Shown in pieces: positions 759 through 57,257 of a DNA stretch of 64,000 nucleotides. Source of the stretch: an uncultured delta proteobacterium (GTDB taxonomy: Bacteria; Desulfobacterota; Desulfobacteria; Desulfobacterales; JAFDCJ01). A program made the position numbers and the translations under genes. How positions within the stretch are numbered: position 1 is the first letter of the stretch; the number at the start of each line of letters is the position of its first letter. The notes under the pieces are model-generated. The model saw nothing but the letters and a program-made list of their open reading frames with translations. It was not told the origin of the DNA and searched no databases. Where the stretch lies: NCBI GenBank assembly GCA_963769935.1, contig CAVYNY010000001.1:102471-166470 (forward strand), written 5' to 3'.

Positions 759-815
759 CGGCGCCGTAAGCGGCCAGTTGGATCGAAAAAGAAACTAAAT
801 GCAGTTTCATACGAG
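759..815 (+). mobile_element. Family A GTCAG-targeted element, minimal copy
   Basis: Follows GTCAG; contains GATCGAAAAAGAAAC and ends AGTTTCATACGAG like the copies at 31636 and 56841; sits in CAGAGGA/CAGAGGT heptamers. Confidence 0.65.
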
Positions 816-847
816 CAGAGGTCAGAAATAAAAAGGGAGAACGCTTC

Positions 848-2186
848 TTGGATGCCGGCAAAAAAGCAGTATGGGGATGGGCCATGTATGACTGGGCCAA
901 CTCAGTCTATGTCACCACTGTTATGGCCGGATTTTTTCCGGTATTTTTTAAACAGTACTGGAGCCATGGCGCCGACGTCAACCTGAGCACCGCCCAGCTC
1001 GGCTTCGGCAACTCGATTGCCAGCCTGATCGTTGCGCTCATGGCGCCGGTGCTGGGAGCCATCGCCGACAAGGGGTCCGCCAAGAAAAAATTTTTGATCC
1101 TGTTTGCCTATCTGGGCGTTTTGATGTCCATTGCCCTGTTTATGGTCCAGAAAGGCCACTGGGCCACGGCTATTTTTGTATATACCATGGGCATCATCGG
1201 TTTTTCAGGCGCCAACATTTTCTATGATGCCCTGCTGCCAAGTGTGGCCGCCGAAGATAAAATAGACTATGTTTCAAGTCTGGGTTATTCAATGGGATAT
1301 CTGGGCGGTGGATTGCTGTTTCTGGTCAATGTGTTGATGACCCTGATGCCCCAAAAATTCGGCCTGCCGGATGCGGCGGCGGCCGTCAGGGTTTCCTTTT
1401 TAACGGTGGCGGCGTGGTGGGGACTGTTTACCATATTTACCATTGCCTGGGTCAAAGAGCCTAAAACCGGCTCACCGGTCGGCGGCGATGAAGGTGTCGT
1501 CCGGGCCGGTATTCGACCAGCTGGCCGGAACCTTTAAAAAGATGCGGCACATGCGCGTCGTCTTATTGTTCCTGCTGGCCTACTGGTTTTATATCGACGG
1601 GGTGGACACCATTATCCGCATGGCTGTGGATTACGGGCTTTCCCTGGGATTTGAGTCCTCCGATTTAATTATAGCGCTTTTAATTGTTCAGTTCGTGGGC
1701 TTTCCGGCGGCCCTGGTGTTCGGCAAGCTGGGCCAGAACTGGGGCGTGCGCCAAGCCATTTATCTGGGTATCGCCATTTATATGGGGGTTACCATCTGGG
1801 GAACGCTGATGACCCGGAAAAACGAATTCTACATTCTGGCGATTGCAATCGGCCTGGCACAGGGCGGTATTCAGGCGCTCAGCCGCTCCTATTATTCCCG
1901 CCTGATTCCAAAAGACAAAGCGGCTGAATTTTACGGCTTTTACAACATGCTCGGCAAATTTGCCGCCATCCTGGGTCCGGTTTTGATGGGCGTCGTCGGG
2001 TTAATCGTGCGCCGCCTGATGATGCCGCCCTCCCCCACCGCAGCGCAGCTCGTCGCCGTCGGCCGATTGGCATCGCGCTGGAGTATCGGGTCTCTCTTAA
2101 TACTCTTCGTGGTGGGGGCGGTTCTCTTTTATTTTGTCGACGAAGACAAAGGGCGCGAGCAGGCGAAATACCTTGCCGCCGATTGA
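848..2186 (+). CDS. MFS transporter, UMF1/Atg22-like, frameshifted near 1510
   Basis: WAMYDWANS N-half (848-1537) and YWFYIDGVDTII...SRSYYSRLIP C-half (1443-2186) lie in different frames. Confidence 0.85.
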
Positions 2187-2293
2187 CCGGGCCGGCCTTG
2201 CGAAGTCAGATATACCCGTCGCTTCATTTCAAACAAATACTCCTCCGTGCAGACCACTCCGTCTGAATCCAATCTTTCCAGCATTCCAGTGTT

Positions 2294-2393
2294 CCCTGGC
2301 CCAGACCGTTTTTAACATAAATCTGATTCTATCTATTTTTTTAAACTGGGACAAACGTACTTTAAATTCTCAGTACCTCGCACCAGGGCGGGC
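2294..2393 (+). mobile_element. Family B 100-bp fixed-end element, copy 1
   Basis: CCCTGGCCCAGACCG...TCGCACCAGGGCGGGC; ends shared with 11701 and 57442. Confidence 0.75.
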
Positions 2394-2661
2394 CATCATT
2401 CCACGGCCGATGTTTACTTCTCCGACCTCGCCGCCAGGACCAGGTTTTCAATATTCGAAAGAAATTCTTGCATCAATTGCAGTTAACCTGACCGCAAATT
2501 GCCGTTCAGCAAAGGAGAAGATTTGCAGATCCAAAAAAGATTAATGAAATATTTATAATTACCGATAAAGAATATACCCGCTATTTTGAATTAACCACCC
2601 GGTTGGCAAAAGCGGAATCAATCGCGGAAACAAGATAAAATAAATACAGAAGGAAGGAATT

Positions 2662-3210
2662 ATGGATCAAAGTTCATTTTTAAGAGTATGCAAATTTTGT
2701 GGTGAAGACTTTGCCAAGTCCGTCAAAGAGTGTCCCCACTGCGGCAAAAAGGTGCAATCCGGCATGTTGTTGATGCTGATTATAGGAATCGGCTGTCTGG
2801 CACTAGCGGCGGCATTTGCGATTCCCATCAGCAAAAAGCAGCCGGACGATATGAAAATGATCGCAATTGCTCCGGTTGACCAGGTCGACACGGTCGAACT
2901 GGCAACCCTGTTTAACGACCGCAAGGTGCAAATAACGCCGCGGGCACAGAGAAAAGCCCGGGAAATCACCGGTAAGGTTGTTCAGTGGGAACTGGAGGTT
3001 TTTGTAGTCACAAAATCCGCCGATTGCTATCAGGTTCTGACGAAACCAACTAAAAGTGCTCCTGGAACCCTTTCGACGGTTTACCCCCGCAACAGTCAGC
3101 AACAAAGCTACCTGGACAGCATCAAGCCGGGAATGACCATCCCAATAAAGGGCAAAATCGCAGGCATCCGGCAGGGAAGGATTAAGATTAATCCGGCTTT
3201 TCTACTTTAA
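2662..3210 (+). CDS. Zinc-ribbon membrane protein with probable C-terminal OB-like domain
   Basis: CKFC-x9-CPHC followed by one TM helix. Confidence 0.65.
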   Translation: MDQSSFLRVCKFCGEDFAKSVKECPHCGKKVQSGMLLMLIIGIGCLALAAAFAIPISKKQPDDMKMIAIAPVDQVDTVELATLFNDRKVQITPRAQRKAREITGKVVQWELEVFVVTKSADCYQVLTKPTKSAPGTLSTVYPRNSQQQSYLDSIKPGMTIPIKGKIAGIRQGRIKINPAFLL

Positions 3211-3226
3211 CATGCGCAGCATACTG

Positions 3227-3323
3227 TAATTAATCCGCCGGAGCTTCGATCGAACGACTTTTGTCAGTTTTAAAAGAAAACTCCAAAATCATGAATGCAT
3301 TATTCTTGAGGGCGGATCAATCC
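3227..3323. mobile_element. Family D element with TAATTAATCCGCC terminal inverted repeats
   Basis: Left end GTAATTAATCCGCCGGA(G/C)CTTCG shared with 36647; right end GGCGGATCAAT. Confidence 0.6.
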
Positions 3324-4109
3324 GCTGACGATCGACTGGAGCTTACCGGCATCATTGGAGAATATCCATTCCACGCCGCGGTTGATTTCCCGGAACAGGC
3401 AGTTTTTCGATCCGGGATACCCGGTACCGACCTTTTGTCCCTGTGCCTGGTGCCTTGCCAACAGGGCATTGTTCAGCAAGAAATAGTGCCCGGCCACTCC
3501 CCTCATTTTTTTTTCCAGGGCCAGGTTGCTGAGCCGATATAAGTTCCACTGGGCAATCGGGATAAACGTCGATGCCGGCACGAAAGTGATCAGGTCGAAC
3601 ATTTGGCGGGTAAGAGACATCAGATGATAGTCGATCTGCGGCTCGACAGCAGAAAAACAGTGCTTTAAAATCTGATTTTGCTGCGCAGGATCAGGATAGT
3701 CTTCGGCTTTTATCTCGACCATCAAATGCAATTTTTTGCCGAACCTCTGAATCACCTCCGACAGTGTAGGAACCTCAGGGCACTCGGACTTCAACGTCTC
3801 CAGTTTGACGTCCGCCACGGTGAGATTCAGGCCGAAGACTCTTTGCAGATTCGCATCATGGATCACGACCGGCCGCAGGTCTTTTGTCCAGCGAATATCG
3901 AACTCGATTCCCCAAACCCCTGCAGCGCCGGCTCGGTCAAAGGCCGGCAGGGTGTTTTCGAATACGCTGCGGTTGTCGTATTCACCGCGATGAGAAACGA
4001 TTTTACAATTCGCTAACTGCTCTAATCCTGGAAACGGCTGCGGCCATAACGCATAGAAACCGTCGAGCACCCTTTCCAATCCATTTTGAATATAAGAAAA
4101 GAATTTCAT
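3300..4109 (-). CDS. Glycerophosphodiester phosphodiesterase family protein
   Basis: SHRG...ENTL, IEFDIRWTKD, VIHD and VEIK motifs. Confidence 0.9.
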   Translation of the reverse strand: MKFFSYIQNGLERVLDGFYALWPQPFPGLEQLANCKIVSHRGEYDNRSVFENTLPAFDRAGAAGVWGIEFDIRWTKDLRPVVIHDANLQRVFGLNLTVADVKLETLKSECPEVPTLSEVIQRFGKKLHLMVEIKAEDYPDPAQQNQILKHCFSAVEPQIDYHLMSLTRQMFDLITFVPASTFIPIAQWNLYRLSNLALEKKMRGVAGHYFLLNNALLARHQAQGQKVGTGYPGSKNCLFREINRGVEWIFSNDAGKLQSIVSGLIRPQE

Positions 4110-4295
4110 TTTAATCCCAAATCGATTATGAACAGAGCTTACGGAATTGGTGATTAAACCATCTTTTCCGGTTTCCGCAGACACGGGATTTCAGCAGCGC
4201 TCCAACCGGCTGGAATCTATTATACACGCAAAGCCCACGAAGGCAATCACGAAAATCTCACTCCTGCCGACAGCACAGGTGTTGCAAGGGTCGAA

Positions 4296-5156
4296 ATGAA
4301 AAAATCGGAAAATTCCAGCCGGGAAAATCGGGGCACCATCCCCGGCAATGTTATTGAAATAAAAAAAGCAGCGGCTATTATTCAAAAAGTCCAGGTTAAT
4401 ATACCGTTTACCATGTTGTATGATACCTATCTGGATGCATTCATAACCAACGGTCTAAATCCGGAAATCGGTCTGGATGCCGCTGCCTTAGACCGATTTA
4501 CTTATGAGGATTTCAGTTGCATTGCCGGGGAATTTCGTAAACACTCCAGGACCGTCACGCTTCACGGACCCTTTATCGATTTAAACCCCGGTTCCATGGA
4601 TTCTGCAGTGCGGCGGGTGACCGAACAGCGCTTCGAACAGCTGATCGAGCTGGTTCCGCTTTTTGAACCCAAATCGGTAGTCTGCCACGCCGGCTACGAT
4701 GCCAAACGATATGATTATTTCAAAGACACCTGGTTGGAAAAATGCCTGGAACTCTGGTCCCGGCTGGCAAGCCGTCTGGCCGAAAACGGTTCCCGGCTGA
4801 TGCTGGAAAATGTATATGAAGATGGCCCGGAAGATATCCAGGTCATCTTTGAAAGGCTTAAAGACCCTGCGGTCGGATTTTGCCTGGACAGCGGCCATGT
4901 ATCCGCTTTCAGCCAATCCGATCTTGAAATGTGGCTGGAAGTTCTGGGACCGTATCTCGGACAGCTTCATCTCCACGACAACTTCGGCAACTCGGATGCG
5001 CACCTGGCTCTTGGCAGGGGCGACATCGATTTTAGCAAAATATTCAATTACTTGAAAAATACCGCCGCTAAAAGACCCATTATTACCATAGAGCCCCACC
5101 GGGAAACCGAACTCTGGCCGAGTTTGGAGTATCTCGCCCAGGCGTGGCCGTGGTAA
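4296..5156 (+). CDS. Sugar-phosphate isomerase/epimerase (AP endonuclease 2 TIM barrel)
   Basis: LHGPF, LENV, CLDSGH and LHLHDN...DAHL motifs. Confidence 0.85.
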   Translation: MKKSENSSRENRGTIPGNVIEIKKAAAIIQKVQVNIPFTMLYDTYLDAFITNGLNPEIGLDAAALDRFTYEDFSCIAGEFRKHSRTVTLHGPFIDLNPGSMDSAVRRVTEQRFEQLIELVPLFEPKSVVCHAGYDAKRYDYFKDTWLEKCLELWSRLASRLAENGSRLMLENVYEDGPEDIQVIFERLKDPAVGFCLDSGHVSAFSQSDLEMWLEVLGPYLGQLHLHDNFGNSDAHLALGRGDIDFSKIFNYLKNTAAKRPIITIEPHRETELWPSLEYLAQAWPW

Positions 5157-5284
5157 GCCTGCCCGCCATTTCTGAAATAGATCGACCCCCAGGCGCAAAT
5201 TCTTATTAAAGCCTGATCAAAAACGGCCGATATACACCTTGTATCGGTTGAAAAATCATTTAATCTCCCATCAGCAGGAAGGCC

Positions 5285-6763
5285 ATGACAGTGATCAACC
5301 AGGACGGAAATGACACCGGCAATAAAGCTGCGCCGGTGCCTATAGAAGCCAAGACAATGGTCCTCAGCCGGCCCAAAGAAAAAGTCATAGGGCCGCGGCT
5401 GGTTTGCACTACTGCGTCCGGTGAAAGCAAGATCTTTCCTCTCAACAAGTCGCAAATTGTGATCGGGCGGTCCGTGGAAGCCGATCTCAATCTTCTCGAT
5501 CCACTGGTATCCCGCAAACACTGCGTCATTGAAGAGCGCAACAACACGTATGTCGTCCGGAATGTCAGCACTACCAATCCCCTGTTGCTAAACGACCAGG
5601 CGATCGTCGAAAAGCGTCTTTATGCCGGAGACCAACTGAAAATAGGCTCTGCCGCACTGGCATTCATTTCCGACCGTCCCGAGGATGTTAAAAGACTTGA
5701 CACGAAGATGATCAGACAAAAACAGCAGTGGGGAATTCGCTTCTGGATTGCTGTTTCCCTGCTGCTGGTTTTTACGGTTTATTATGGGTATTTTCAGGCC
5801 TACACGCCGCTCAAGATTAAGTGGGCTCTAAACTCAGTAGCCAAACAGATTCAGGCGGGAAAATTCATATCCGCTCAAAATACACTCAAACATATTTTGG
5901 ATCTGGACTTGCCTCTGGAGCAGAGCCATCAGGCAATGGAGCTGCTTGCGCAAACGGCGCTTGCAATCACGGAAGAAAAATACCAGCATGAAGATCTGGA
6001 TTCGGCAATGGAATATCTGAAGTCGTATCTGGCTGAATACGGTGCCGGTAAACAAGCGGAAATTCTCTGGGATCGGCTGGATTATTATCGTTTGAGTCTG
6101 GCGCAGCGTCTGGAAGGCGAAAAAAAATTTCAACCGGCCTTGAGGGAGTACGCCGCTATAAAGGAAGACAGCATTTATTTCGAAGAAGCACACAAGGCCA
6201 TCCGCCGGTTATGGTTGATACACCAGCAGCAAACCCGCCAGGACCAGACGCTGGCTCAATTGTTGAAGGAGGCTGAAGTCCATTTCCAGGCACAGCAGTA
6301 TCTTAAACCGGTCAATCAAAATGCCTATGTCCTGTATCAGGCCGTTCTCACCCTGGAACCCCGGAATGCGCTGGCCCTCCAACGCATTGACCAAATGAAG
6401 GCATTTTACCGCGAAAACGGTGAAAATTATTTTGCCAAAAAAAATTGGCCCAAAGCCCTATCCTATTTTGAACGCTACTATCTCATCGATACCGACACCA
6501 AGGAAGTAAATAATAAAATGAAATTCTGCCGCGAGAAATTGGCCGACGCCAGAGCCCGGGACCGCGACGCCATTTATGCTGAAGCTTCTTCAAAGAAAAA
6601 GTCACAAAAATCACAGCCAAACCATCAAACGCAGGCTGAAAAGAAAGAACAGATCAAACGCATGTTGGAAGAATCGGGTACCGAAAGCTCCTGGATTATG
6701 AAATATCTTTTCGAAGACCAAAAGAATGAAAAGAATGATAAAGATAACGATAAACCCTGGTAG
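5285..6763 (+). CDS. FHA-domain membrane protein with TPR-like helical region
   Basis: IGRS...VSRKH...STTN FHA motif, one TM helix, helical repeats. Confidence 0.8.
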   Translation: MTVINQDGNDTGNKAAPVPIEAKTMVLSRPKEKVIGPRLVCTTASGESKIFPLNKSQIVIGRSVEADLNLLDPLVSRKHCVIEERNNTYVVRNVSTTNPLLLNDQAIVEKRLYAGDQLKIGSAALAFISDRPEDVKRLDTKMIRQKQQWGIRFWIAVSLLLVFTVYYGYFQAYTPLKIKWALNSVAKQIQAGKFISAQNTLKHILDLDLPLEQSHQAMELLAQTALAITEEKYQHEDLDSAMEYLKSYLAEYGAGKQAEILWDRLDYYRLSLAQRLEGEKKFQPALREYAAIKEDSIYFEEAHKAIRRLWLIHQQQTRQDQTLAQLLKEAEVHFQAQQYLKPVNQNAYVLYQAVLTLEPRNALALQRIDQMKAFYRENGENYFAKKNWPKALSYFERYYLIDTDTKEVNNKMKFCREKLADARARDRDAIYAEASSKKKSQKSQPNHQTQAEKKEQIKRMLEESGTESSWIMKYLFEDQKNEKNDKDNDKPW

Positions 6764-6789
6764 GTCTATGGCAGGCAGAGAGCAAACCG

Positions 6790-8451
6790 ATGGCTAAAGG
6801 CTATCCACCAAAATCGCGGCATTTCGTGACAGGGCTTTTGTTCATTATTTTGATCGCCGGCGGCGGAAGTTCCTGTGCACTTCGGATCCTTCAGCCGACT
6901 CCGGCGCCGTCCATTCTCGAAGAGGCTAAACTTCCATCCCGAGTCGCTATTTTGCCGTTCGTAAACAAAACATCGACGCCCGAGGCCGGCACGCTGGTTC
7001 GCAGGATGTTTTATAATTTTTTCGGCTCGTTGAACTACCAGGATATCGAACCGTTTGTCATCGACGACAATTTAAGAATAAATGAATTGTACGCGGATGT
7101 GATTGCCGGCAAAAACGTGTCGCCGCAAAAACTGGGGCAGCTGCTCGGCGTGGACGCCGTTATATACGGCGAAGTAACCAGTCTGGGAAAAATATTTGCG
7201 CTGGTATATGCCGATAATCAGGCCGGGCTCAAAGCACGGATGGTGCGCTGCGATTCCGGTCAGACCGTCTGGGAGCTTGAACAGACCATCCATATAGAGG
7301 AAGGCGAAGTGCCGATGAGCCCCATCGGATTGGCCACGGCGATATTTAAGACCGCCCTCAGTCACACCCGGGCCACTCACATGAAAGCCGCCGCCGAATT
7401 GTGCATGCAAATGGTCGCAACCATTCCGAACCCGCCCGGGGTTAGTCAACCGCCGCCCAAGATTCAGGCCCTGGTGCACAATGGTGCCGGCCAATTGCTG
7501 GTACCCGGTGATTATTTAAAAGTTGCCATGATTGCTGAAAAAAACCGGCTCGCCAGCTGGAGCCTACCGCCGCTGATTGATAATCTTCCGATGAAAGAAA
7601 AGGAACCGGGTGTTTACATCGGCGCCTACCGGATCAAGGCCAAGGATCGGTTGCCCCACGGGAGGCTGGTGGGGTATCTGCGCGGCAAATCCGGTCTTGG
7701 CAGTCAGTGGGTGGATACGTTGGGACCGATCAAGATCGGCCAACCAACCGTGCTGCCACCCGTAATTGCCAAGGATTATGTCTTAAGCATTGAAAAGAGT
7801 CCCTATCTGGTAAACGATGCGCTGCTGGTCAAGCCCGGCGCCAAGCTAACGATGAATCCCGGAACCGTGATCTGGTTTCGCAGCCTGGGCCTGATCGTCA
7901 AAGGGGAACTTCACATTTTAGGGACCGAAAGTGATCCGGTGCGGTTGTCAAGTCTGGGAGCAGCCGGCTGGAAAGGTATTTTCCTGGACCACAGCCGCAC
8001 CGAAAATGAAATTCGCTATTGTACAATCTCGGATGCCGAATTCGGTTTCAGAGCCAGCAAATCAAAGGTATCAATCCAGAACAGCCAGTTTCAGTACAAT
8101 GTCTGGGGCATAGTAATGGAAGAAAGCAGCGCCGAAATTTCCGCCAGCCTCATTCGAACATCGGAAAAATCAGGCATCGCTGCCCGCAAGGCCAGCATTC
8201 TGGTCAAGGATTCCGTCATCACTGAAAACAGCGCCGGCGGATTTTTGCTGGAAGGCAGCCGGGCCGAAATCGAACACAATAATATTATAAATAACGGCGG
8301 CTGGGAGGTTAAAGTGCTGGATGATAAAGGCCAGGTTAAAGCCGCCCAAAACTGGTGGGGTACCGAGGATCCGATCAAAAACGAGATTGTCGGTCCCGTC
8401 GCCGTCACGCCGATTCTGAAATCACCGATTGCGTTCACGGTTTTGGAATAA
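6790..8451 (+). CDS. Lipoprotein: DUF799/GNA1162-like N-domain plus right-handed beta-helix domain
   Basis: Lipobox-like GSSC; VAILPF...LGVDAVIYGEV; SPYLV...NWWG beta-helix repeats. Confidence 0.7.
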   Translation: MAKGYPPKSRHFVTGLLFIILIAGGGSSCALRILQPTPAPSILEEAKLPSRVAILPFVNKTSTPEAGTLVRRMFYNFFGSLNYQDIEPFVIDDNLRINELYADVIAGKNVSPQKLGQLLGVDAVIYGEVTSLGKIFALVYADNQAGLKARMVRCDSGQTVWELEQTIHIEEGEVPMSPIGLATAIFKTALSHTRATHMKAAAELCMQMVATIPNPPGVSQPPPKIQALVHNGAGQLLVPGDYLKVAMIAEKNRLASWSLPPLIDNLPMKEKEPGVYIGAYRIKAKDRLPHGRLVGYLRGKSGLGSQWVDTLGPIKIGQPTVLPPVIAKDYVLSIEKSPYLVNDALLVKPGAKLTMNPGTVIWFRSLGLIVKGELHILGTESDPVRLSSLGAAGWKGIFLDHSRTENEIRYCTISDAEFGFRASKSKVSIQNSQFQYNVWGIVMEESSAEISASLIRTSEKSGIAARKASILVKDSVITENSAGGFLLEGSRAEIEHNNIINNGGWEVKVLDDKGQVKAAQNWWGTEDPIKNEIVGPVAVTPILKSPIAFTVLE

Positions 8452-8457
8452 GCCCTA

Positions 8458-8578
8458 GGAATGTCGAATGTCGAAGGAATAATGTCGAACGAAGGAATTT
8501 TATCTATTCCATTTCTTTAAAGGCCGGAGCTAAGCGACATCCACAATTTGTCATTCGTCAATCGACATTCGACATTCC
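8458..8578 (+). repeat. Family C palindromic element with AATGTCG/CGACATT arms
   Basis: Inverted heptamer arms around GAAGGAATTTTATC...GGAGCTAAGCGACATCC. Confidence 0.8.
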
Positions 8579-9091
8579 CTATAGTCTTTCCACTATCCAA
8601 TCCTCCAAATCTTTTAGCACCTGCTCTCTTTGCGCCGGCGGTTCATTATAAATTTCATGTTACAATCCCTTATAAACGTGCAGCGTTTTGTCCGGCACTG
8701 CCAGCTTTTCAAAAAATTGCCCGGCAGCCCGCGCACTTACCAGATGATCGTCGCCGGCGACCTGCATCAGCATTGGAATTCGGATGGATGAGACCTGCTG
8801 ATTGACAGTTTCCATGGCCGCCATTAATTCGGTAAAGAAACGGGGGCTGATTCGATCATGAACCAGCGGATCGTTTATATAGGTACGGACGACATTTGGG
8901 TCGTGACTGATTTTGGCGGCATCCAGCTCGTTGCCCAGGGTGAGGCACGGCCAAATGTAAGACATGATGGATCCCAATATCTTTTTCCCGGCGGGTACTT
9001 CGATAACCATCCCCAGGGCCGGCGATGAAGCCAGTACCCCATCAATCATTTTCGGAAATCGCTGGACATAATGAAGTGCGATCAAGCCGCC
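8579..9091 (-). pseudogene. Alpha/beta hydrolase (lysophospholipase-like), 5'-truncated with internal stop
   Basis: Begins at GGLIAL just after the missing GHSM nucleophile motif; TAA at 8660-8662 replaces Tyr in GLYHE; the frame continues HEIYNEP...VERL*. Confidence 0.8.
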
Positions 9092-9247
9092 GTACCTTAA
9101 TTAACTAAACCTCACCAGTTGTCAGGGAGCAAATTACAGCCTTGAATGGACGGTTTATCAGGGCGGATTAATTTGACATTTGACTGGCTTTCTGTCAAGA
9201 GATCGGATGCCATAAAGCAGAAAGGAATGATTCTCTCAGTTAGCGCT

Positions 9248-11801: not shown

Positions 11802-11883
11802 TCAAACAAATTGCAATGACCAAAATACAAAATTCCAAACGGGGACTTCATTTGTTTGGGATATCGCTTCAGATAATATGAAT

Positions 11884-11986
11884 CTGGAAGATAAGACATT
11901 ATTGGAATCTCGTGCAGCTAACAGAAACAATTCCTCATAGCGCACTCTCCAAGGCGTAGGCTACGAGCCGAAGGCCAGGGCGGGCT
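11884..11986 (+). mobile_element. Family B2 103-bp dispersed repeat, copy 1
   Basis: 97/103 identical to 35738-35840 by eye; ends GCCAGGGCGGGC like family B. Confidence 0.85.
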
Positions 11987-12061
11987 GAAACCTGACACCT
12001 GAAACCTCTAATCTTCCCACTGTCATCTGTCCTCTGACCTCCGTCATCCGTCCTCTGGATG

Positions 12062-20020: not shown

Positions 20021-20027
20021 ATTAATT

Positions 20028-31601: not shown

Positions 31602-31635
31602 ACTCTGAGTCGGGTTTAGGGGTTTCAGGTGTCAG

Positions 31636-31803
31636 CCCAGCCGCCGGCCAAAACAACGGCCGGTCTGACCGAAAAAGAAACATAATAGTTCACCGCAGAG
31701 CCCGCCGAGAACGCCGAGAAAGAAAAGTTAAATTAATCTCTGCGCTCTCAGCGGTGAGACACTTCGTAAAAATGGCATCGAATTTAAGGAAGTTTCATAT
31801 GAG
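31636..31803 (+). mobile_element. Family A GTCAG-targeted element with about 110-nt cargo
   Basis: Left 33 nt identical to 56841; right end AGTTTCATATGAG; lies within GGT(G/T)TCA heptamers. Confidence 0.8.
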
Positions 31804-32050
31804 GTGTCAGCCAAGTCTCTGGCTGCCCGAGGAGTCTGCTTTAATCGAAGCACTAATTCTTAAGGCTCCACAAGAATTTCAAAGAAGGTAACTCAGGCAA
31901 TTTTGATTGTGAGAGCGGTTTTTAACCGTGAAAAACCCGGATTTACATATACCGATAATCATGGCTGCAAGCCGCGCAACCAGAAACCTGAAACCTGAAA
32001 CCTGGAACCTGAAACCTGAAACCTAATAATCATAAAAACAGGAGGAACTA

Positions 32051-35662: not shown

Positions 35663-35748
35663 CCACATTTCCATCAATAACCGGTAGTCACCTTATTCGC
35701 GCCTGGCGAAAGTTGGGTTTTGAAGTAATTCGGATAACTGGAAGATAA
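35659..35748 (+). pseudogene. hicA: HicA-like toxin, truncated after 29 codons
   Basis: MTTFPSITGSHLIRAWRKLGFEVIRITG; ATGA overlap with the hicB stop; cut at a family B2 element before the catalytic GSH. Confidence 0.75.
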
Positions 35749-35840
35749 GACATTATTAGAATCTCGTCCAGCTAACAGAAACAATTCCTCATATCGCACT
35801 CTCCAAGGCGTAGGCTACGAGCAGGAGGCCAGGGAGGGCT
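35738..35840 (+). mobile_element. Family B2 103-bp dispersed repeat, copy 2
   Basis: 97/103 identical to 11884-11986. Confidence 0.85.
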
Positions 35841-35890
35841 GACACCTGAAACCTCTATTCTGCCCTCTGTCATCTGACCTCTGTCTCCGG

Positions 35891-43096: not shown

Positions 43097-43148
43097 TTTA
43101 CCCTTCCTTTCCCTTTTGGTTTTCAGGTTAGCTATACACGAGGCCCAA

Positions 43149-44243: not shown

Positions 44244-44246
44244 AAC

Positions 44247-47065: not shown

Positions 47066-47071
47066 GTCGGA

Positions 47072-49755: not shown

Positions 49756-49765
49756 GGCTCCTTGT

Positions 49766-49885
49766 GGAATGACGAATGATCGAATCGAGCAAATAAATAA
49801 CGAAGGAATTCTATCATTTTATATTGAAATTTGATTGAAAAAGGTGGAGCGAAGCGACATCCATCGTTCGTCATTCGTCATTCCT
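49766..49885 (+). repeat. Family C palindromic element with AATGACG/CGTCATT arms
   Basis: Core GAAGGAATTCTATC...GGAGCGAAGCGACATCC. Confidence 0.8.
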
Positions 49886-49905
49886 AAGGCTTCCAGCCGG
49901 AAAGA

Positions 49906-50133
49906 TCAGATCGCTCAGGCTCTCCCGTTAAAGCCGATGGTCACATTTCCGCCTTCAACGATCACCGGGATCTTTCTGGCGCCCTTGGAGAGCTTCAACA
50001 TGCTGTCGCGATGACCGGCATCTTTTACGACATTAAAATATTCGAACGGCCGTCCGTCTCTGGCAAATGCTTCACGAGCTGCCCGGGTATAGGGTCAAGC
50101 GTCCTTGCCAAAAATCAGAATTTTATCAGCCAT
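49906..50133 (-). CDS. UXX-star-type glutaredoxin-like selenoprotein, 75 aa, two Sec
   Basis: MADKILIFGKDAUPYT...KIPVIVEGGNVTIGFNGRAUAI*; TGA at 50095-97 and 49915-17; GGAGGG RBS. Confidence 0.88.
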
Positions 50134-50295
50134 CGGTTCCCCTCCCGTTTTGGAAAAGCCGAAACCATCTTTCTGAGTCGATATGTGCCGATTTGGTTGC
50201 AAAAACCCTAACAGCCATTATCTTTCGTGTCAACATTTCTAAATTGACAAATCATTGAATTTAACAGATATTGTCTTTTTCTAAGGCGGTTACTT

Positions 50296-50577
50296 ATGAT
50301 GACGGACCGGCAGGAATTAAGCCGAACTACAACTATTAGCAATGAGCTCGGCCTGCATGCGCGGTCGGCCGCCCGAATTGTTGAAATTGCCGGAAATGCC
50401 GCCGCGAATATCTGGCTGGTGAAAGACGACCAGAAGGCCGACGCGTCCAGCATCGTGGATATCCTGACGCTGGCTTGTGAAAAGGGTACAAGAATCAGGT
50501 TTATCATCGAGAACCCGGCGGACACCGACATCTTAAATGCCCTGGTGGATCTCGTTGATAGCGGATTTGGGGAATAG
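50296..50577 (+). CDS. ptsH: HPr phosphocarrier
   Basis: NELGLHARSAA and ADASSI motifs. Confidence 0.93.
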   Translation: MMTDRQELSRTTTISNELGLHARSAARIVEIAGNAAANIWLVKDDQKADASSIVDILTLACEKGTRIRFIIENPADTDILNALVDLVDSGFGE

Positions 50578-50583
50578 ACCATA

Positions 50584-52344
50584 ATGTCGCAACCGGTTGC
50601 AGAAATAAAACTCAAGGGAATCAATGCTTCTCCCGGTATATGTATCGGTAGGGCCTACCTGGTCGATCGCGAAGGCGTCGAAATTGTCGAAAAGTATTCT
50701 ATCGACCGGAAAAATCAGTCAAAAGAGATTAAGCGTTTTAAGGCGGCCGTCAAAAAAGCAGCGGATGACATTCGCCAGGTCATCAAAAATAGTCCGGAAG
50801 AACTCCGGCGCGCCCAAATTCTTGAAACCCATCTCGCCCTGCTGACAGACAAGATGCTCTACGGCAAATCCATTGACATGATTGAAAAAGACGGGGTTAA
50901 TGCCGAATGGGCCCTCAAGCAGGTGGTGTCCAATCTCAAGGCGGTGTTTCTGGGTATGGCCGATGCATACTTGCGAGAGCGCGCTTCGGACATCGTGCAT
51001 GTATCGGACAGCATCATGCGCAACCTGGTCGGAGTTGAAATTGAAAATATCGCCGAGATCGACAAGCGCGTCATTCTGGTAGCCCGCGACCTGTCTCCGG
51101 CCGACACCAGCCAGATCAACCTCGGAAAAATTATGGGCTTTATCACGGACCACGGCGGCAAAGCCTCGCACACCGGGATCGTCGCCCAGGCCCTTGAGAT
51201 CCCGGCCGTGGTCGGACTTGAGCACGCTACCAGCCGGATCAAAAGTGAAGATCTCATCATTGTCGACGGCAATACCGGTATGGTAATCGTAAATCCAAGC
51301 GAAAATTCGCTGGTAGAATATGAAGAGCGCAAAATTCAATACGAAGCATTCAGAGCGGTCGTCACGCGGGATAGTCATTTAAAAGCGGAAACAACCGACG
51401 GCATTCAATTGAAAGTCATGGGCAATATTGAACTCCCGGAAGAGGTGGTTGCCGTAAAAAATTACGGCGGCGACGGCATCGGCCTTTACCGGACCGAATT
51501 TCAGTTTATGAATCGTCCGATTTTTCCGGGTGAAGAAGAATTGTTTGAAAAGTACAAGGATGTGGTTGAAGTCATGGCGCCCAAGCCCGTCACCATTCGT
51601 ACCCTGGATATCAACGGCGACAAGGCGCTTGCCGGTCAATCCGGTCATGACGAGGCCAACCCGGCCCTCGGTCTGCGCTCGATACGCTACTGCCTCAAAA
51701 AACCGGATGTGTTCCTTACCCAGCTGCGGGCCATATTGAGAGCGGCGGCCTTCGGCAATGTTCGCATCCTGTTTCCCATGATCTCAGCCTATTTTGAAAT
51801 ATGCGAAGCAAGAAAATTGCTGGACCAGGCAGCCGAATCTCTCGCCAGAGACGGCCTGCCGTACAACCGGGAGATTGATATCGGTATCATGATCGAAGTC
51901 CCTTCGGCGGTCATCATGGCCGATTTTCTGGCGGATAAAGTTGATTTCTTCAGCATCGGTACCAATGATCTCATCCAGTATGCCCTTGCCATTGACAGGG
52001 GCAACCAGCAAGTCGCTCATCTCTATCAGCCGCTGGATCCTGCCGTAATCCGGCTGATCAAGCATACGGCGGATGTGGCCAAAGACAAGGGGATAAAGGT
52101 ATACATGTGCGGTGAAATGGCGGGCACGGCCCATCACATCCCCCTGCTGTTGGGCCTCGGCATGGACGAGTTGAGTATGAATCCTCAATCAATTCCGCAT
52201 ATCAAACGGGTGATTCGATCCTTGAGCCTGGGCGATGCCAGATCATTCATCCAGGAGGCCCTTAAAAAGCGAACGGCCAGGGGGATCTTTGGCCTGGTGC
52301 GGGAAACCTACGGTGATATCCTGGCGGATCAGACCTATCGCTAA
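50584..52344 (+). CDS. ptsI: PEP-protein phosphotransferase, enzyme I
   Basis: GGKASHTGI, GIGLYRTEF, FFSIGTNDL and MCGEMAG motifs. Confidence 0.96.
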   Translation: MSQPVAEIKLKGINASPGICIGRAYLVDREGVEIVEKYSIDRKNQSKEIKRFKAAVKKAADDIRQVIKNSPEELRRAQILETHLALLTDKMLYGKSIDMIEKDGVNAEWALKQVVSNLKAVFLGMADAYLRERASDIVHVSDSIMRNLVGVEIENIAEIDKRVILVARDLSPADTSQINLGKIMGFITDHGGKASHTGIVAQALEIPAVVGLEHATSRIKSEDLIIVDGNTGMVIVNPSENSLVEYEERKIQYEAFRAVVTRDSHLKAETTDGIQLKVMGNIELPEEVVAVKNYGGDGIGLYRTEFQFMNRPIFPGEEELFEKYKDVVEVMAPKPVTIRTLDINGDKALAGQSGHDEANPALGLRSIRYCLKKPDVFLTQLRAILRAAAFGNVRILFPMISAYFEICEARKLLDQAAESLARDGLPYNREIDIGIMIEVPSAVIMADFLADKVDFFSIGTNDLIQYALAIDRGNQQVAHLYQPLDPAVIRLIKHTADVAKDKGIKVYMCGEMAGTAHHIPLLLGLGMDELSMNPQSIPHIKRVIRSLSLGDARSFIQEALKKRTARGIFGLVRETYGDILADQTYR

Positions 52345-52350
52345 TTAATT

Positions 52351-52812
52351 ATGGAAAAAAACCACATCAAAATAATTGCTGTGAACCGCAAAGCCCGGCA
52401 CGACTTTTTTATCGATGATGAGTATGAGGCCGGAGTGGTCCTGCAGGGGACCGAGGTAAAATCCCTTAGACTCGGCAAGGTCAATTTAAAGGATTCCTAT
52501 GCCAGGATTAAAGACGGCGAGGTGTTCGTTTACCAGTTGCATATCGGCCCCTACCCTTTTGCCTACTATGGAAATCACGATCCGTTGCGAGCCCGCAAGC
52601 TTCTCCTGCACAAACAGGAAATTAAACGCATATATGCCAAGGTGAACGAAAAGGGCCACACCCTGGTGCCTCTCAAACTCTATTTTAAGGGCGGCAAGGT
52701 TAAAATTTCCCTGGCACTGGCCAAAGGCAAGCGTCAATACGACAAGCGCGAGTCCATCAAGCGCCGCGATGAGAAAAGAGACCTTGATCGCGCCCGCAAG
52801 CAATATATGTAA
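52351..52812 (+). CDS. smpB: SsrA-binding protein
   Basis: NRKARHD, EAG..LQGTEVKS, RKLLLHK and GKRQYDKR motifs. Confidence 0.97.
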   Translation: MEKNHIKIIAVNRKARHDFFIDDEYEAGVVLQGTEVKSLRLGKVNLKDSYARIKDGEVFVYQLHIGPYPFAYYGNHDPLRARKLLLHKQEIKRIYAKVNEKGHTLVPLKLYFKGGKVKISLALAKGKRQYDKRESIKRRDEKRDLDRARKQYM

Positions 52813-52862
52813 TTGTGGAAGCAACCGCGGAATCCATTCTGCTTCCAGGCCTGCCAGCTTCT

Positions 52863-53261
52863 TTACTTGGTCGTCGTCACCACCGCACAGGGGGCGTTCA
52901 GGATAACGTATTGGGCCGTCGAGCCGAACAGCAGCTTGCCGACTTTAGAGCGCCGTCTGATTCCCAGGCAGATTTCTCTGCTGTTTTTCACCGTCAGATG
53001 GCGTACGATCTCTTCGCCGGCCGTGCTGGAACTTACCAGAAGAGTGGTTTTAAACGGGATTTTCTCGCCGTTCATAAGGGTTTTAATTTCCTCATCCAAT
53101 TTTTGTTCCAGCCGGTCGATGTCGGCATAATCCAGATCGGCGCCATGCTCCTCGGCTCGCACCACCTCGATCTCATCTTCAAACGCCTGCGCATGGGCCT
53201 TGGCCAGCGACAGCGCCTCCTTGGCCGCTTCGGACCCGTCATATGCAACCATGATACTCAT
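52863..53261 (-). CDS. Universal stress protein
   Basis: MVAYDGS...LLFGSTAQYVILNAPC. Confidence 0.9.
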   Translation of the reverse strand: MSIMVAYDGSEAAKEALSLAKAHAQAFEDEIEVVRAEEHGADLDYADIDRLEQKLDEEIKTLMNGEKIPFKTTLLVSSSTAGEEIVRHLTVKNSREICLGIRRRSKVGKLLFGSTAQYVILNAPCAVVTTTK

Positions 53262-53450
53262 TTTGATCTCCTGCTAATATAAAATTTGAAGAATCCCGGC
53301 CCCGAGGGCCAGGCATTGACTTCATCCCAGCTTCCGGCTCGTAGAGCCTACGTTCCATTATTCCATTAAGATTCCACCCCGAAGCAAGCCCCAAAGTTTA
53401 ATTATGAATCGGTTCTTGTCAACAGCTGATTTTGCATCTATAAAGTATAG

Positions 53451-53957
53451 ATGACGCCTTTATACGACGGCATCGTCCGTTTATTTTACAGATTGGCCTA
53501 CAGGACCCTGTTGTCACTATGGTTTTTTACCAGACCGACCGTTTACGGCGTCTATATTGCCGTATGGCACCAGGAAGAGCTGTTGATTATTAAAAACTCC
53601 TATAAAGAGCGATTTACCATACCATGCGGGCGAATAAAACGTGGGGAAGATTCAGCTGAAGCCGCTGTCCGGGAGCTAAAAGAAGAAGTCGGCATTGAAG
53701 TCGAGAAAAGCCGACTAAAACCCATCGGCGAATACACCGCCAAACACAAATATGCACGCGATGTAGGCAAATTCTTTGAAATCGAGATGACCGAACTGCC
53801 GCTCATACGTGTGGACAACCGGGAGGTTGTCCTGGCACGGTTCATGCCTCTTGAGCGCGCCCGCAAGTTGGACCTGAATCCAACAGTAGAAGCCTGGTTG
53901 GGAAACCGGCAGCAACTCAACAAACTCAATCAACTCAATAAACCCAAAAACTCATAA
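53451..53957 (+). CDS. NUDIX hydrolase
   Basis: GRIKRGEDSAEAAVRELKEEVG Nudix box. Confidence 0.9.
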   Translation: MTPLYDGIVRLFYRLAYRTLLSLWFFTRPTVYGVYIAVWHQEELLIIKNSYKERFTIPCGRIKRGEDSAEAAVRELKEEVGIEVEKSRLKPIGEYTAKHKYARDVGKFFEIEMTELPLIRVDNREVVLARFMPLERARKLDLNPTVEAWLGNRQQLNKLNQLNKPKNS

Positions 53958-54419
53958 CAGCGCATTTTTCAACAGCGTCATGGCTGCCTGGCCGCCTTCC
54001 GATTGCGCATAATCCAGAATGACACTGGTGAATTTGCTGACCATGTCCGGCGATAATCCGAGTTTGCCGAAGCTGTCCGCCAGAGCGGATACCCCTTGAG
54101 CCGATCCGGATGAGCTACCGAACAAGGAAGTCGCCTTGGATGCCAAACCACCGACTCCACCGGCTTCAGGGGCGGCTTTGACCAGCGAATCGATACCGGG
54201 CAATGCGCTTAGCAGCTGGGAGTAATCGCCGGCACTCATGTTGCTCTGCGCTTGTTTAAAAATCGCGCCGGCCCCGCCCTCGGCCTGTGACTGGCTCACA
54301 CCGAGCTGATCAACCAATTGTCCGATCAGTGTGCTGGTATCGGCCGAAACAGACCCGGCCACCCCGAACATTAATATTGAGAATAAAACCGAGGCCTTGA
54401 TCAATAGCTTTGTTTTCAT
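53952..54419 (-). CDS. DUF2780-family secreted protein
   Basis: Signal peptide; QLGVSQSQAEGGAGA and F.KLGLSPDMV motifs. Confidence 0.8.
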   Translation of the reverse strand: MKTKLLIKASVLFSILMFGVAGSVSADTSTLIGQLVDQLGVSQSQAEGGAGAIFKQAQSNMSAGDYSQLLSALPGIDSLVKAAPEAGGVGGLASKATSLFGSSSGSAQGVSALADSFGKLGLSPDMVSKFTSVILDYAQSEGGQAAMTLLKNALL

Positions 54420-54678
54420 TTCCCCCTCCTTCAATTTAGCGGCCCGATATGCCCCATAACTTGCTATAATTGCGTTAAATACTGACCCTCTTGAACAATA
54501 GCTGAAAAGCAACAAACGAATAATAAGCATACCGGTTAAAGTATGCAATGGAGATGGTTCGTGAAATAAAAACGTCAGACCAAAACGAACCGCTAATGTG
54601 ATTTGGGCCTCGTTTTTATCTTCTCCTCGACGATTTGGTTAATCGCCTGCCGGTTCTGCATCCGCAGATCGTTCGTTC

Positions 54679-54829
54679 AAGGCCGAAGGCGCCATAGAGC
54701 CCCGCAAGCAGGTCGGCGATGGGCAGCGACAGCCGAATCGGACCGCTCTCCCGGCTCCCGTTGACGCTCATCAATCCGCTCATGGTCTGAGCGATGAAGT
54801 CAAAGGCCGGTCGACCGGCTGATGGGCCG
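54679..54829 (-). pseudogene. Fragment of a class III (CaiB/BaiF) CoA-transferase
   Basis: RPAFDFIAQTMSGLMSVNG...PIADLLAGLYGAFG, no start codon. Confidence 0.7.
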
Positions 54830-54835
54830 CCGGGC

Positions 54836-55768
54836 TCAAGCTGCCGTTTGGTTTTGAGGCGGATATTGTCTCAGTCGAAGACCAGCCTTCATTACCTGAC
54901 CCGGCAACGTGCGTCCGATCACCTGTTCGACCAGCCTGGCGCATTCAATTAGTTTTGGAAGGTCCACGCCGCAATCAAGCTCCAATTCCCGGATCAGATA
55001 GACCAGGTCTTCCGTTGCCACATTGCCCGTTGCACCGGGAGCAAAAGGACAACCGCCCAAACCGCCGATCGAGGATTCAAATCGTTGATATCCCAATTGA
55101 AGTGCTTCATACACATTCACCAGCCCGATGCCGCGGGTATTGTGGAAGTGAAGCGCGAGCTCGATTTCCGGGAATCGGTCTTTGAGGTACCGCGTGGTTT
55201 GACGTACCTCCGGCGGCGTCGCCATGCCGGTGGTATCTCCTAAAGTGACCGTGGCTATTCCCAAAGCCCGCATGCGCTCAACAATGCTGCCGACCTGTTG
55301 CGGGGCGACGTTGCCTTCGAAGGGGCAGCCAAACGCTACCGCCACCGCACCGCGCAAGGGTATTCCGGCTTTGGCCCCGATCCGGGCGACGCTTTCGAAG
55401 CCTTTCAGAGATTCAGCGATTTTTTGATTGACGTTGCTCTTATTGTGGCTCTCGGTAGCCGAAACGAAAACCACCATTTCATCTATTCCGGCTTGGGCGG
55501 CATTTTCAGCGCCCTTCGGATTTGGAACCAGCGCCGCCAGGCGCAACCCCGGCACCCGGTTGACGCCGGCCACGACTTCAGCGGCATCGCGCAATTGCGG
55601 GATGGCCTTGGGCGATACAAAAGAGGTCACTTCGAAGTTGCGCAATCCGGATTGGATAAGCTGATTGACAATCTCGATTTTTGTTGCAGTTGGAATAAAT
55701 TCGCGCTCCATCTGGAAGCCGTCGCGGGATCCAACTTCAACAATGGTAATTTTCGATGAAAGCGTCAT
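54836..55768 (-). CDS. Hydroxymethylglutaryl-CoA lyase
   Basis: EVGSRDGFQ, AFGCPFEG, HFHNTRG and GLGGCPFAPGATGN motifs. Confidence 0.93.
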   Translation of the reverse strand: MTLSSKITIVEVGSRDGFQMEREFIPTATKIEIVNQLIQSGLRNFEVTSFVSPKAIPQLRDAAEVVAGVNRVPGLRLAALVPNPKGAENAAQAGIDEMVVFVSATESHNKSNVNQKIAESLKGFESVARIGAKAGIPLRGAVAVAFGCPFEGNVAPQQVGSIVERMRALGIATVTLGDTTGMATPPEVRQTTRYLKDRFPEIELALHFHNTRGIGLVNVYEALQLGYQRFESSIGGLGGCPFAPGATGNVATEDLVYLIRELELDCGVDLPKLIECARLVEQVIGRTLPGQVMKAGLRLRQYPPQNQTAA

Positions 55769-55784
55769 ATCGTGGTCTCCTGTC

Positions 55785-55895
55785 AAGCGTTTCGGCCGGA
55801 TCAGAAATATGCAAGGTAGAACCGGGTTTGAAATAATAGCGGAAGATGCCGTTCCTGATTTTTTGATAGGCTTGATCGGCCAAAGATAGTCGATT
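55785..55895 (-). pseudogene. GntR-family HTH N-terminal remnant
   Basis: SLADQAYQKIRNGIFRYYFKPGSTLHISDPAETL, running directly into the lyase RBS. Confidence 0.6.
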
Positions 55896-56276
55896 CGGTT
55901 TCGTTGAACCGGCTGCCGGCTTTAGAGCACCTGCCTTCAGAGCTGAACCGCGTTGAAGCAGATAATCAAACTATTGCGCTGCCGGATCGCTATCTGACAC
56001 TGCATTATAAAAAAATCTGTAAAAAATACAAGTTGGATATAAAGAAAGCCCAAGTAGCTTCCCTCCCCAGGGGCGGGATTGAAGGAGGAGGGGTAAAATA
56101 GACAGCATTCCTTTTACTTGCTCTTTCTATAAATCCGGATTTACTAATTCTTGACAAAACTCATGATTCAGCTTACTTTAGTGGCACACTCGTTCTTTCA
56201 CATACCCCTTTATTACCCACCATAACAACTTTCAGCTTTGAGCTAACAGCTGGGAGCTGCAAACGAAGTTTGTGCT

Positions 56277-56632
56277 GGGGGCGAAACGGATTCGACGGGG
56301 ACAAAGAAGCTTTGGCTGCATACCGAGCTTTCCTGTCTGCTCGTTAAACGACGGGAACTTAAACATAATCGCAGATGATTATGCATATGCTCTGGCCGCA
56401 TAAATAGGCCAGCGCCCTGTCAGGTTAATCCTGCGGACCTGATAAGGACGTCGACTAGCGGGATAGCCATCCCGGCTGCCTGTGACGGGAAGGGCGAAAC
56501 TTAAGCGGGCTGGCCGTTTAAAAATCCTGCCTGAAGGAGTTTTAAACGGTAAGATTCAAATTTCAGGCTAAGTATGTAGATGCCCGAGTGGAATGTTTGC
56601 GGACGCGGGTTCAACTCCCGCCGCCTCCACCA
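56277..56632 (+). ncRNA. ssrA: tmRNA
   Basis: 5' GGGGGCGAAACGGATTCGAC; 3' GCGGGTTCAACTCCCGCCGCCTCCACCA; tag ORF ADDYAYALAA* at 56371-56403. Confidence 0.97.
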
Positions 56633-56795
56633 GTCTTCGTTCGAAACGCAGTGCAGAACGAAGACTGTCACGGCGTAGCCTTCAGGCGAAGCCGGACTCA
56701 CTATCAATACCTATCCGTTTGCGTTTCGAACTACGCCTTGGCAAGCCGATATAAACACAGTCTTCGTTCGAAACGCAGTGCAGAACGAAGACTGT
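56631..56795 (+). repeat. Two identical 38-nt hairpins with a structured spacer
   Basis: CAGTCTTCGTTC-GAAACGCAGTGCA-GAACGAAGACTG-T at 56631-56668 and 56758-56795. Confidence 0.9.
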
Positions 56796-56805
56796 AAGTG
56801 ACAAT

Positions 56806-57257
56806 ATGAAAGGCTTCCACTATGTTTACATCCTTGTCAGCCCAGCCGCCGGCCAAAACAACGGCCGGTCTGATCATAAAAGAAACTTTTGGAAATCGGA
56901 CACAGTTGGATTTAATATCACGCCCACTTCGTTAGAGCTCACAGAGACCGCAGAGAACATTTTTCTTTCGCCGCAGGCGCCTGTAAACCCAGACCTCTGT
57001 GATCTCCGAGCGCTCTGTGTGAGATGTAGTTTCATATGAGTGAACAGGATGAAACGCGTCACTATACCGGTCTCACCGAAAATTTGCAAGATCGCCTTAA
57101 AGCCCACAACGCCGGTCAAGTATCCCATACATCCAAATTCCGACCGTGGCGAATCGAAACGGCAATCGCCTTTCGGTCCAAGGAAAAAGCTTCCGAATTC
57201 GAAAGATACCTAAAGTCTCACGCCGGCAGAGCTTTTGCGAACAAAAGGCTCTGGTGA
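56806..57257 (+). pseudogene. Small GIY-YIG nuclease (UPF0213/YhbQ-like) split by a 200-bp insertion
   Basis: Removing 56841-57040 gives 83 aa: MKGFHYVYILVSEQDETRHYTGLTENLQDRLKAHN...FERYLKS... Confidence 0.88.
56841..57040 (+). mobile_element. Family A GTCAG-targeted element with about 140-nt cargo
   Basis: Same ends as 31636-31803; precise removal restores the host ORF. Confidence 0.88.

Follow-up and report, generated by a model that had tools for sequence, protein, structure and literature searches.

A 64,000-nt stretch of the genome of an uncultured delta proteobacterium (NCBI GenBank assembly GCA_963769935.1, contig CAVYNY010000001.1; C1:102471-166470 of the 8.0-Mb, 41-contig assembly, called the window below) carries three short repeat copies, one of which interrupts a GIY-YIG gene. 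We conclude, with a probability of roughly 0.8 for the reading as a whole, that these are gene-less copies of the ends of an IS110 element, that they are likely moved in trans, and that a bridge-type RNA is predicted to pick their 7-nt, AG-ending target and to grip their ends as a folded single strand. The first part, that the three copies are non-autonomous IS110 derivatives, is almost certain; the remaining parts are graded where their evidence is given.

Three copies and an exact insertion into a GIY-YIG gene

The three copies (57, 168 and 200 nt) lie at the coordinates assigned by an initial annotation made from the letters of the window alone. Each is preceded directly by GTCAG and terminates in AGTTTCATA(C/T)GAG, and the two long copies have a 33-nt left end in common, all as annotated. 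The coordinates, GTCAG and end motif of copy 1 hold, while its left end needed correction, being shortened and degenerate. The internal inverted pair GAAAC/AGTTTC, described as bracketing cargo, is also present, and is to be identified as the sub-terminal repeat of the element's ends; the filler from GAAAC to AGTTTC measures 7, 109 and 141 nt in copies 1, 2 and 3 (6 nt in copy 1 if a T is assigned to the repeat). The copies and their parts are as follows.

759..815, + strand: copy 1, 57 nt, near-minimal; degenerate left end 759-795, 7-nt spacer, right end 803-815
31636..31803, + strand: copy 2, 168 nt; left end 31636-31681, 109-nt ATAATAG-type cargo, right end 31791-31803
Left-end parts of copy 2, + strand: hairpin 31644-31663, 7-mer 31664-31670, GAAAC 31677-31681
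56806..56840, + strand: 5′ piece of the GIY-YIG gene, holding the first tyrosine strand
56841..57040, + strand: copy 3, 200 nt; left end 56841-56886, 141-nt TTTTGGAAATC-type cargo, right end 57028-57040
56849..56868, + strand: left-end hairpin of copy 3, beginning 9 nt past the AG core and reaching right up to the 7-mer
56869..56875, + strand: TCTGATC, internal 7-mer of copy 3, matching the donor-loop 5′ guide segment in full elements; predicted RNA-binding site, minus strand
56882..56887, + strand: GAAACT, left sub-terminal inverted repeat of copy 3, with its partner AGTTTC at 57028-57033
57034..57040, + strand: ATATGAG, right-end 7-mer of copy 3 (5 nt plus the AG core), matching the donor-loop 3′ guide segment in full elements
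57041..57257, + strand: 3′ piece of the GIY-YIG gene

Copy 3 sits after TTGTCAG within the GIY-YIG gene, and excising 56841-57040 in silico restores an 83-aa open frame from the ATG at 56806, as had been annotated. The downstream piece alone matches PF01541 from profile position 10 onward. Its nearest natural homologue, P0001 (93% identical to that piece), reads continuously through YVYILVSEQDETRHY. Because P0001 carries the missing tyrosine strand joined directly, the insertion is exact, with a single shared AG and no longer duplication, confirming what the restored frame had indicated. Among 11 homologues displayed, the top 6 have the tyrosine strand or a variant of it, and the 5 shortest, which were deliberately chosen, start within or after the strand. 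An IS110-type 2-nt core without target duplication is thus seen in P0001, and likewise in the read-through of an oxidoreductase gene (next section) and in the mismatch between the heptamer variants to the left and right of copies.

An IS110 recombinase between the same ends

One alone among 181 left-end matches in the genome enclosed a long insert with a true right end. This partner element, at C37:825-2501, encodes a 464-aa protein with PF01548 and PF02371 above cut-off, corresponding to DEDD RuvC-like and Transposase_20 domains, which makes it an IS110 member. Residues D28, E76, D113, D116 and S348 are invariant in 14/14 aligned homologues, and the best sequence and fold matches are IS621 and ISCro4 (Z 18.6-18.7, rmsd 4.4, ~300 residues aligned); the fold search gave no identity for the recombinase's helical insert. 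On C37 and in many other genomes these ends enclose a structured RNA together with a DEDD recombinase gene, and the family is likely mobilised in trans by an IS110-family recombinase. The initial annotation had described a non-autonomous, target-specific carrier with a 2-nt core and had suggested looking for copies that enclose a transposase; both stand, with IS110 the correct one of its candidates and the C37 element the copy sought.

A mini copy abuts the C37 element. Together the two (C37:752-2501, L001) break up the 5′ end of a gene for an aldehyde oxidoreductase-like protein; read through the insertion, this gene aligns with its paralogues, and the natural site there resembles a right end. 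Three further IS110 copies in the genome are ~30% identical to the C37 protein and lack the family's ends in the flank stretches inspected, and the assembly holds no second member of the clade of the C37 recombinase. The IS1111 group has its RNA in a long right end and sub-terminal repeats of 7-17 bp (PMC11208160; here and below, what is attributed to a cited source comes from parts of it). The C37 clade differs in each respect, with its RNA upstream of the gene, its right end after the stop codon and repeats of 5-6 bp.

A two-loop RNA whose guides match the target and the right end

Genome and metagenome scans yielded 71 and 79 related loci. Guides were parsed with a motif pattern independent of the guide letters, which succeeded for 61/148 loci and gave 49 distinct RNAs. 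The leaders of related loci (33 sequences) align as a two-loop RNA with 97.5% of alignment cells paired (0/500 shuffles) and both-sided changes in 16/32 pairs; since this alignment also supplied the structure, the controls lean its way. With target and donor loops whose guides match target and donor, it appears to be an IS110 bridge RNA.

The element's own right-end 7-mer recurs in the 3′ segment of loop 2, at 7/7 in 35/36 elements (after a mis-called end was dropped; 12 others lacked an end); over the variable 4 nt of this guide the match is 3.92 versus 1.55 (0/5000). A match to the loop-1 3′ segment stands 25-50 nt ahead of the left sub-terminal repeat, at 7/7 in 29/42 and 6/7 in 9/42, with a mean of 6.55 compared to 4.42 for swapped guides (0/1000). 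Because RNA 7-mers match both the left flank (38/42 at 6-7/7) and the right end (35/36), the choice of GTCAG is likely RNA-guided, and for the family as a whole we hold RNA-guided target choice to be very probable. A 32-copy Bryobacterales element illustrates this: 30 of its left flanks end in GCCAG like its guide, 20 being identical to the guide, while its right flanks vary, with no position above 18/32.

The other side of the target gives little. A comparison of the loop-1 5′ segment with right flanks returned a weak signal (best 2.35 versus 1.70 of 7, one of 60 tests), and across all 60 offset/sense combinations tried for a right-flank guide the best z was 3.7, with no clean diagonal. A handshake pairing as in IS621 is seen next to the target guide, where the following RNA base is identical to the first left-end base in 41/43; the two groups compared also form clades. 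The right guides of IS621 cover 5 nt of the top strand in addition to the core, and the RNA bases that follow them pair with the partner once exchange has taken place (PMC11208158). The IS621-type layout, with left and right guides on opposite strands beside the core in both loops, was not found here.

Read on the minus strand, the core would be CT as in IS621. The loop-1 3′ guide would then pair with the core plus 5 nt of the target and the loop-2 3′ guide with the core plus 5 nt of the right end, and the target's other side would be read weakly or not at all. The covariation makes this assignment of a minus-strand CT core and two 3′ guides highly probable. Three observations weigh on the opposite side. 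A donor-loop handshake was expected, and A stands at +1 in only 9/32. The C37 element's right end equals its own target guide and fits its donor guide at 4/7, the sole exception among 36. Finally, 87/148 loci went unparsed (truncated or divergent loci, and copies of a single Bryobacterales element), and related loci are not independent of one another.

In the closest full elements (L006, L033, L034, L043, L104 and L105) the target guides spell right-end variants (ATACGAG, ATATGAG, ACACGAG, ATATAAG) and differ from the element's own donor guide, so that siblings seem to aim at one another's ends. Other relatives show other sites. Insertion into heptamer arrays also occurs in relatives with TCAG-type guides (L049, L118, L119, L123), and siblings with an AATCCAG guide (L044-L047, L050, L051, L053, L054, L108) are inserted at the ends of GTCATTCCGG...CCGGAATCCAG palindromes. 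The distant members L183 (NZ_CP135477.1), L158 and L162 have an A-run target guide and lie behind the A-run of an apparent IS3-type gene end; the L183 protein has an identical 46.3% match on many enterobacterial plasmids, whose annotations gave no named IS.

A probable source of the GTCAG copies

The RNA model matches this genome only at C37:919-1067, and neither this model nor blastn of the C37 leader found a match in any copy's cargo. The C37 target guide, ATACGAG, is the sequence of a right end, and the donor segments of this RNA agree with the copies' ends at 4-6/7. The locus L039, whose recombinase is 75% identical, has the guide TTGTCAG, which is the flank of the GIY-YIG insertion, and is itself flanked by GTGTCAG; L040 and L049 likewise target GTCAG.

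The GTCAG copies would then have been placed by a sibling with an NTGTCAG guide, now lost or unassembled in this genome, and the C37 element and its kin, whose guides spell right ends, would stack themselves and their passengers behind earlier copies. We regard this division, with a sibling placing the GTCAG copies and resident C37 kin accounting for the stacks, as quite probable; the tandem stacks in particular follow because the resident element's target guide reads right ends. Against it counts the lack of a GTCAG-guided RNA in this genome, whose one match to the RNA model, C37, has a target guide that fits each of the three window flanks at 3/7, and likewise in 22 same-genus genomes and in viral contigs. 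Such guides are also scarce more widely: 401 genomes of the order gave 5 pattern matches, of which 1 has a TTGTCAG guide, 2 have an ATCCAG guide and 2 look spurious. Four contig sets placed on the C37 RNA held no GTCAG guide, but these come from other strains and give no evidence of absence.

Alternatively, the resident C37 element itself placed the GTCAG copies through half-match or off-target events. It is the sole clade member in the assembly, its donor guides are 1-2 mismatches from the commonest ends, and half-match insertion has been described for IS621 (10.64898/2026.08.31.748434). This alternative is nevertheless improbable: its target guide matches GTGTCAG at only 3/7, yet 49 left-end calls follow exact GTGTCAG, and GTCAG-guided siblings exist.

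An internal 7-mer, a left-end hairpin and a possible folded donor

The initial annotation had read the CTGA(C) behind the left-end hairpin as a complement of the GTCAG target. This does not survive comparison across full elements: a 4-nt complement of the target occurs behind the hairpin in 0/43, and the pairing score equals that of shuffles (2.23 versus 2.23). On this result, which covers the region behind the hairpin, we reject the DNA-guide model of a HUH transposase, in which DNA bases behind the hairpin read the target. An enzyme of the IS200/IS605 or REP-associated HUH type would suit a one-sided target, a subterminal hairpin and the absence of duplication, and the genome has 11 Y1 HUH matches. 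Of these, 10 are on copy-bearing contigs and none lies within 5.8 kb of a copy, so that no Y1 HUH gene was found between or beside the ends. An IS110 gene stands between the ends here and in other genomes, and the HUH explanation is largely refuted, with only a minute chance left to it.

CTGA is instead part of a 7-mer that covaries with the 5′ segment of loop 2, not with the target. The 7-mer and the loop-2 segment agree at 7/7 in 20/44 elements and at 6/7 in 15/44, with a sharp 7-nt edge, and the mean match of 6.11 compares with 3.87 when partners are swapped and 4.77 when they are swapped within end types (0/2000). In IS621 the two donor guides pair with opposite strands; here the 7-mer agrees in sense with the 3′ donor guide. 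The hairpin of full elements differs in length, and the core and the 7-mer lie 20 to 30 nt apart, yet the hairpin keeps its start 9 nt past the core and abuts the 7-mer directly. The stem register places positions +9 to +12 against the 4 nt preceding the 7-mer, with 3.05/4 paired versus 2.26, and other offsets reach at most 1.64. The sub-terminal repeats covary left and right (22 GAAAC/GTTTC and 10 GTGAC/GTCAC of 32), which fits either pairing or a symmetric protein site. In the predicted fold of the copy-3 junction they form the outer stem, on both strands.

A geometry that would accommodate these features has the minus strand, copied out, as the donor. The two sub-terminal repeats would close an outer stem, and the left-end hairpin would make a U-turn. 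In the bubble between the stems, the internal 7-mer would substitute for the bottom strand that faces the left donor guide, giving the IS621 geometry on a single strand. That the donor is one DNA strand folded back in this attC-like manner is, on present sequence evidence, a proposition whose chances we put as even. In its favour we counted reports that IS621 excises a single-stranded circle (10.64898/2026.08.31.748434) and that CazIS110 undergoes top-strand copy-out (10.1101/2025.10.25.684509). Against it are the weakness of the hairpin on its own (z below -2 in 11/43), the formation of ISPpu9 circles despite a mutated left-end inverted repeat (PMC12288879), and the reported preference of integration for double-stranded donors (10.64898/2026.08.14.744561).

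The last two of these also favour IS110 passengers whose donor stays double-stranded. The third RNA segment would then either open a bubble of its own, 20-30 bp within the left end, or pair with an antisense RNA, and the hairpin would do no more than assist or form one arm of a cruciform. The modest hairpin energy points the same way, and covariation shows pairing, not strandedness. The core-to-7-mer spacing, however, varies over 20-30 nt while both stem distances stay fixed, which is hard to reconcile with a rigid helix, and no RNA segment matched bases beside the core on the other strand. We consider a double-stranded donor possible, though unlikely.

Returning to the folded donor, neither a folded IS110 donor nor such a guide layout was found in the literature searched, figures and preprint supplements aside; bridge RNA models that deviate from IS621 are presented in a supplementary figure of 10.64898/2026.10.21.760802. 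The broadest form of the proposal is a large clade of long IS110 recombinases with a rewired bridge RNA, an attC-like folded strand bearing both donor guides, a 7-nt half-site target, 57-70-nt ends that act as cassette carriers, and siblings that build stacks. It may hold or fail with about equal likelihood.

Expansion of the family across the genome

Loose motifs gave 181 left-end and 164 right-end matches in the whole genome versus 3 and 18 in the reversed genome, and GTCAG followed by the left end (at most 2 mismatches) gave 54 versus 0 in the control. Each of the 22 same-genus genomes, whose assemblies are fragmented, has 0-2 of the latter. The family layout is a left end of ~46 nt, a right end of 13-18 nt and a filler of 6-211 nt, partly made of other nested repeats. 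Cargo falls into a few types assembled from such repeats; a 176-nt cargo, present in 13 copies with a median of 2 nt differences, differs from a 141-nt cargo by one nested 35-nt repeat. The 54 copies here versus 0-2 in genus genomes, and the 13 near-identical 176-nt cargos, point to a recent burst of the family in this genome.

A fuller left-end pattern made 212 calls versus 30 in the control, so some calls are false, and yielded 94 complete copies shorter than 320 nt. Of these, 47 follow [G/T]TCAG and 30 follow the right-end-like sequence of another copy; the remaining 17 are mostly one-base variants, mis-registered calls, or copies with tips swapped for another palindrome. Thus GTCAG, which had been annotated as the target of the family, is the target for part of it and not for the 30/94 that stand behind another copy's right end. 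In 49 left-end calls the preceding sequence is exactly GTGTCAG. Set against GC skew, the copies show no clear strand bias (25/47).

A second heptamer stands behind 21/28 copies versus 52/181 unoccupied sites (p 6e-6); its variants do not match those on the left. A 7-bp target duplication, which it suggested, was rejected, given that left and right variants differ and that the GIY-YIG site has no second heptamer.

Two further results count against the reading as a whole. Among the 13 copies of the 176-nt cargo there are 5 left-end tips and 4 right-end variants, with the first 4 left-end nt and the right-end 7-mer varying, so that end variants assort independently of near-identical cargo; plain whole-element copying cannot account for this. 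In addition, four contig sets placed on the GIY-YIG site contained no empty sites or circle junctions, although these represent other strains only and are no evidence of absence; junctions of right end to left end do exist in the genome, as tandem stacks. Cargo exchange between resident shells of left and right ends, by gene conversion or by end swapping in tandem stacks, could have spread much of the family, and the reassorted 176-nt copies (13, a median of 2 nt apart) are what it would produce. We find this doubtful as the main route: the clean insertions in two genes (GIY-YIG and the aldehyde oxidoreductase 5′ end on C37) require true insertion, and 54 copies here versus 0-2 in each of the genus genomes suggest a burst.

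Surroundings of the copies in the window

Copy 1 lies in an intergenic heptamer array with a nitroreductase gene on one side and an ATG22/MFS transporter gene on the other. Copy 2 is flanked by genes for a thiolase and a 3-hydroxyacyl-CoA dehydrogenase.

731..758, + strand: four-unit heptamer array; its final unit is AGGTCAG, whose last AG is the core preceding copy 1
31622..31635, + strand: heptamer pair GTTTCAG-GTGTCAG before copy 2, the genome's most frequent target context
31804..31860, + strand: an additional GTGTCAG heptamer, then an apparent decayed older left end (by sequence inspection); many copies show a like pattern behind them

Intergenic arrays of CAG-ending heptamers occur at window 731-758, 11985-12040, 31622-31635, 31981-32022 and 35839-35887. 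Another repeat of ~100 nt, in two near-identical copies (window ~35740-35838 and 11880-11984, - strand), follows G[T/G]TCAG heptamers, has a left-end-like start and contains a nested palindrome and TATGAG. The transporter gene 3′ of copy 1 (window 848-2186, +) consists of two overlapping frames, 848-1537 and 1443-2186, perhaps owing to a frameshift. Immediately before the GIY-YIG gene, window 56277-56800 (+) holds a tmRNA gene (tag ADDYAYALAA), then two copies of a 38-nt palindrome and more short palindromes; the tmRNA was the sole match of an Rfam scan of the window.

Comparison with known systems

The mini-elements are passengers of IS110, of a kind described once before, in Pseudomonas (MITEPpu9). 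What appears new, as judged from sequence comparison, is the guide layout of the partner clade, a variant not found in the literature searched. The minimal copies show which bases the donor needs, and those bases point to a geometry unlike that of the solved bridge recombinases. If true, this geometry would answer the open question of the ISPpu9 work about the purpose of the left-end palindrome, would agree with the reports of single-stranded excision, and would imply programmable insertion of folded single-stranded cargo at a 7-nt one-sided target. The minimal ends of 57-70 nt would be natural cassette carriers, and the stacks of mutually targeting siblings would parallel integron arrays, with RNA as the guide. 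Folded single strands are the substrates at integron attC sites and at the ends of IS200/IS605, and the IS200/IS605 target is one-sided; these systems work by tyrosine recombinase or HUH chemistry with no RNA guide, and are related to the family here by analogy only.

The closest described system is MITEPpu9 (the ssr9 module) with ISPpu9 in Pseudomonas putida KT2440 (PMC12288879, PMC8450116). The two systems share the AG core, a gene-less module with the partner's two ends, alone and in tandem behind the partner, and a promoter of the element's own upstream of the recombinase. Our copies have the marks of such a module: they carry the two ends of a cognate IS110 but lack its recombinase gene, and they occur repeatedly, in tandem with the partner too. 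Compared by eye, the ISPpu9 A box (AG, 8 nt, hairpin, ~12 nt, CAAAC) and B box (GTTTG, 5 nt, AG) have the layout seen here. The present family numbers 94 complete copies, some of them minimal and nearly empty, and has many types of cargo, versus 8 MITEPpu9 copies with one small RNA, and it targets heptamer arrays and sibling right ends, whereas MITEPpu9 targets repetitive extragenic palindromes (REPs). In the parts covered, the ISPpu9 papers (PMC12288879, PMC8450116) give neither guides nor a role for the hairpin.

With IS621 and ISCro4 (PMC11208160, PMC11208158; PDB 8wt6, 9t56) the partner clade shares the DEDD and Tnp-domain serine residues, a two-loop RNA upstream of the gene, 3′ guides over the core plus 5 nt, a handshake base, and a 2-nt core without duplication. 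Unlike them, it has a protein of 464 aa rather than ~330, with a long helical insert, and carries its gene and RNA on the strand opposite the CT core. Its 5′ target guide barely matches; the site that its 5′ donor guide matches is 20-30 nt away from the core, and the two donor guides use one and the same strand. ISPpu10 has in common with our family a DNA stem-loop in recognition and a cassette of left end, cargo and right end moved in trans, but there the stem-loop belongs to the target, and all four guides follow the opposite-strand pairing of IS621 (10.64898/2026.03.19.712850).

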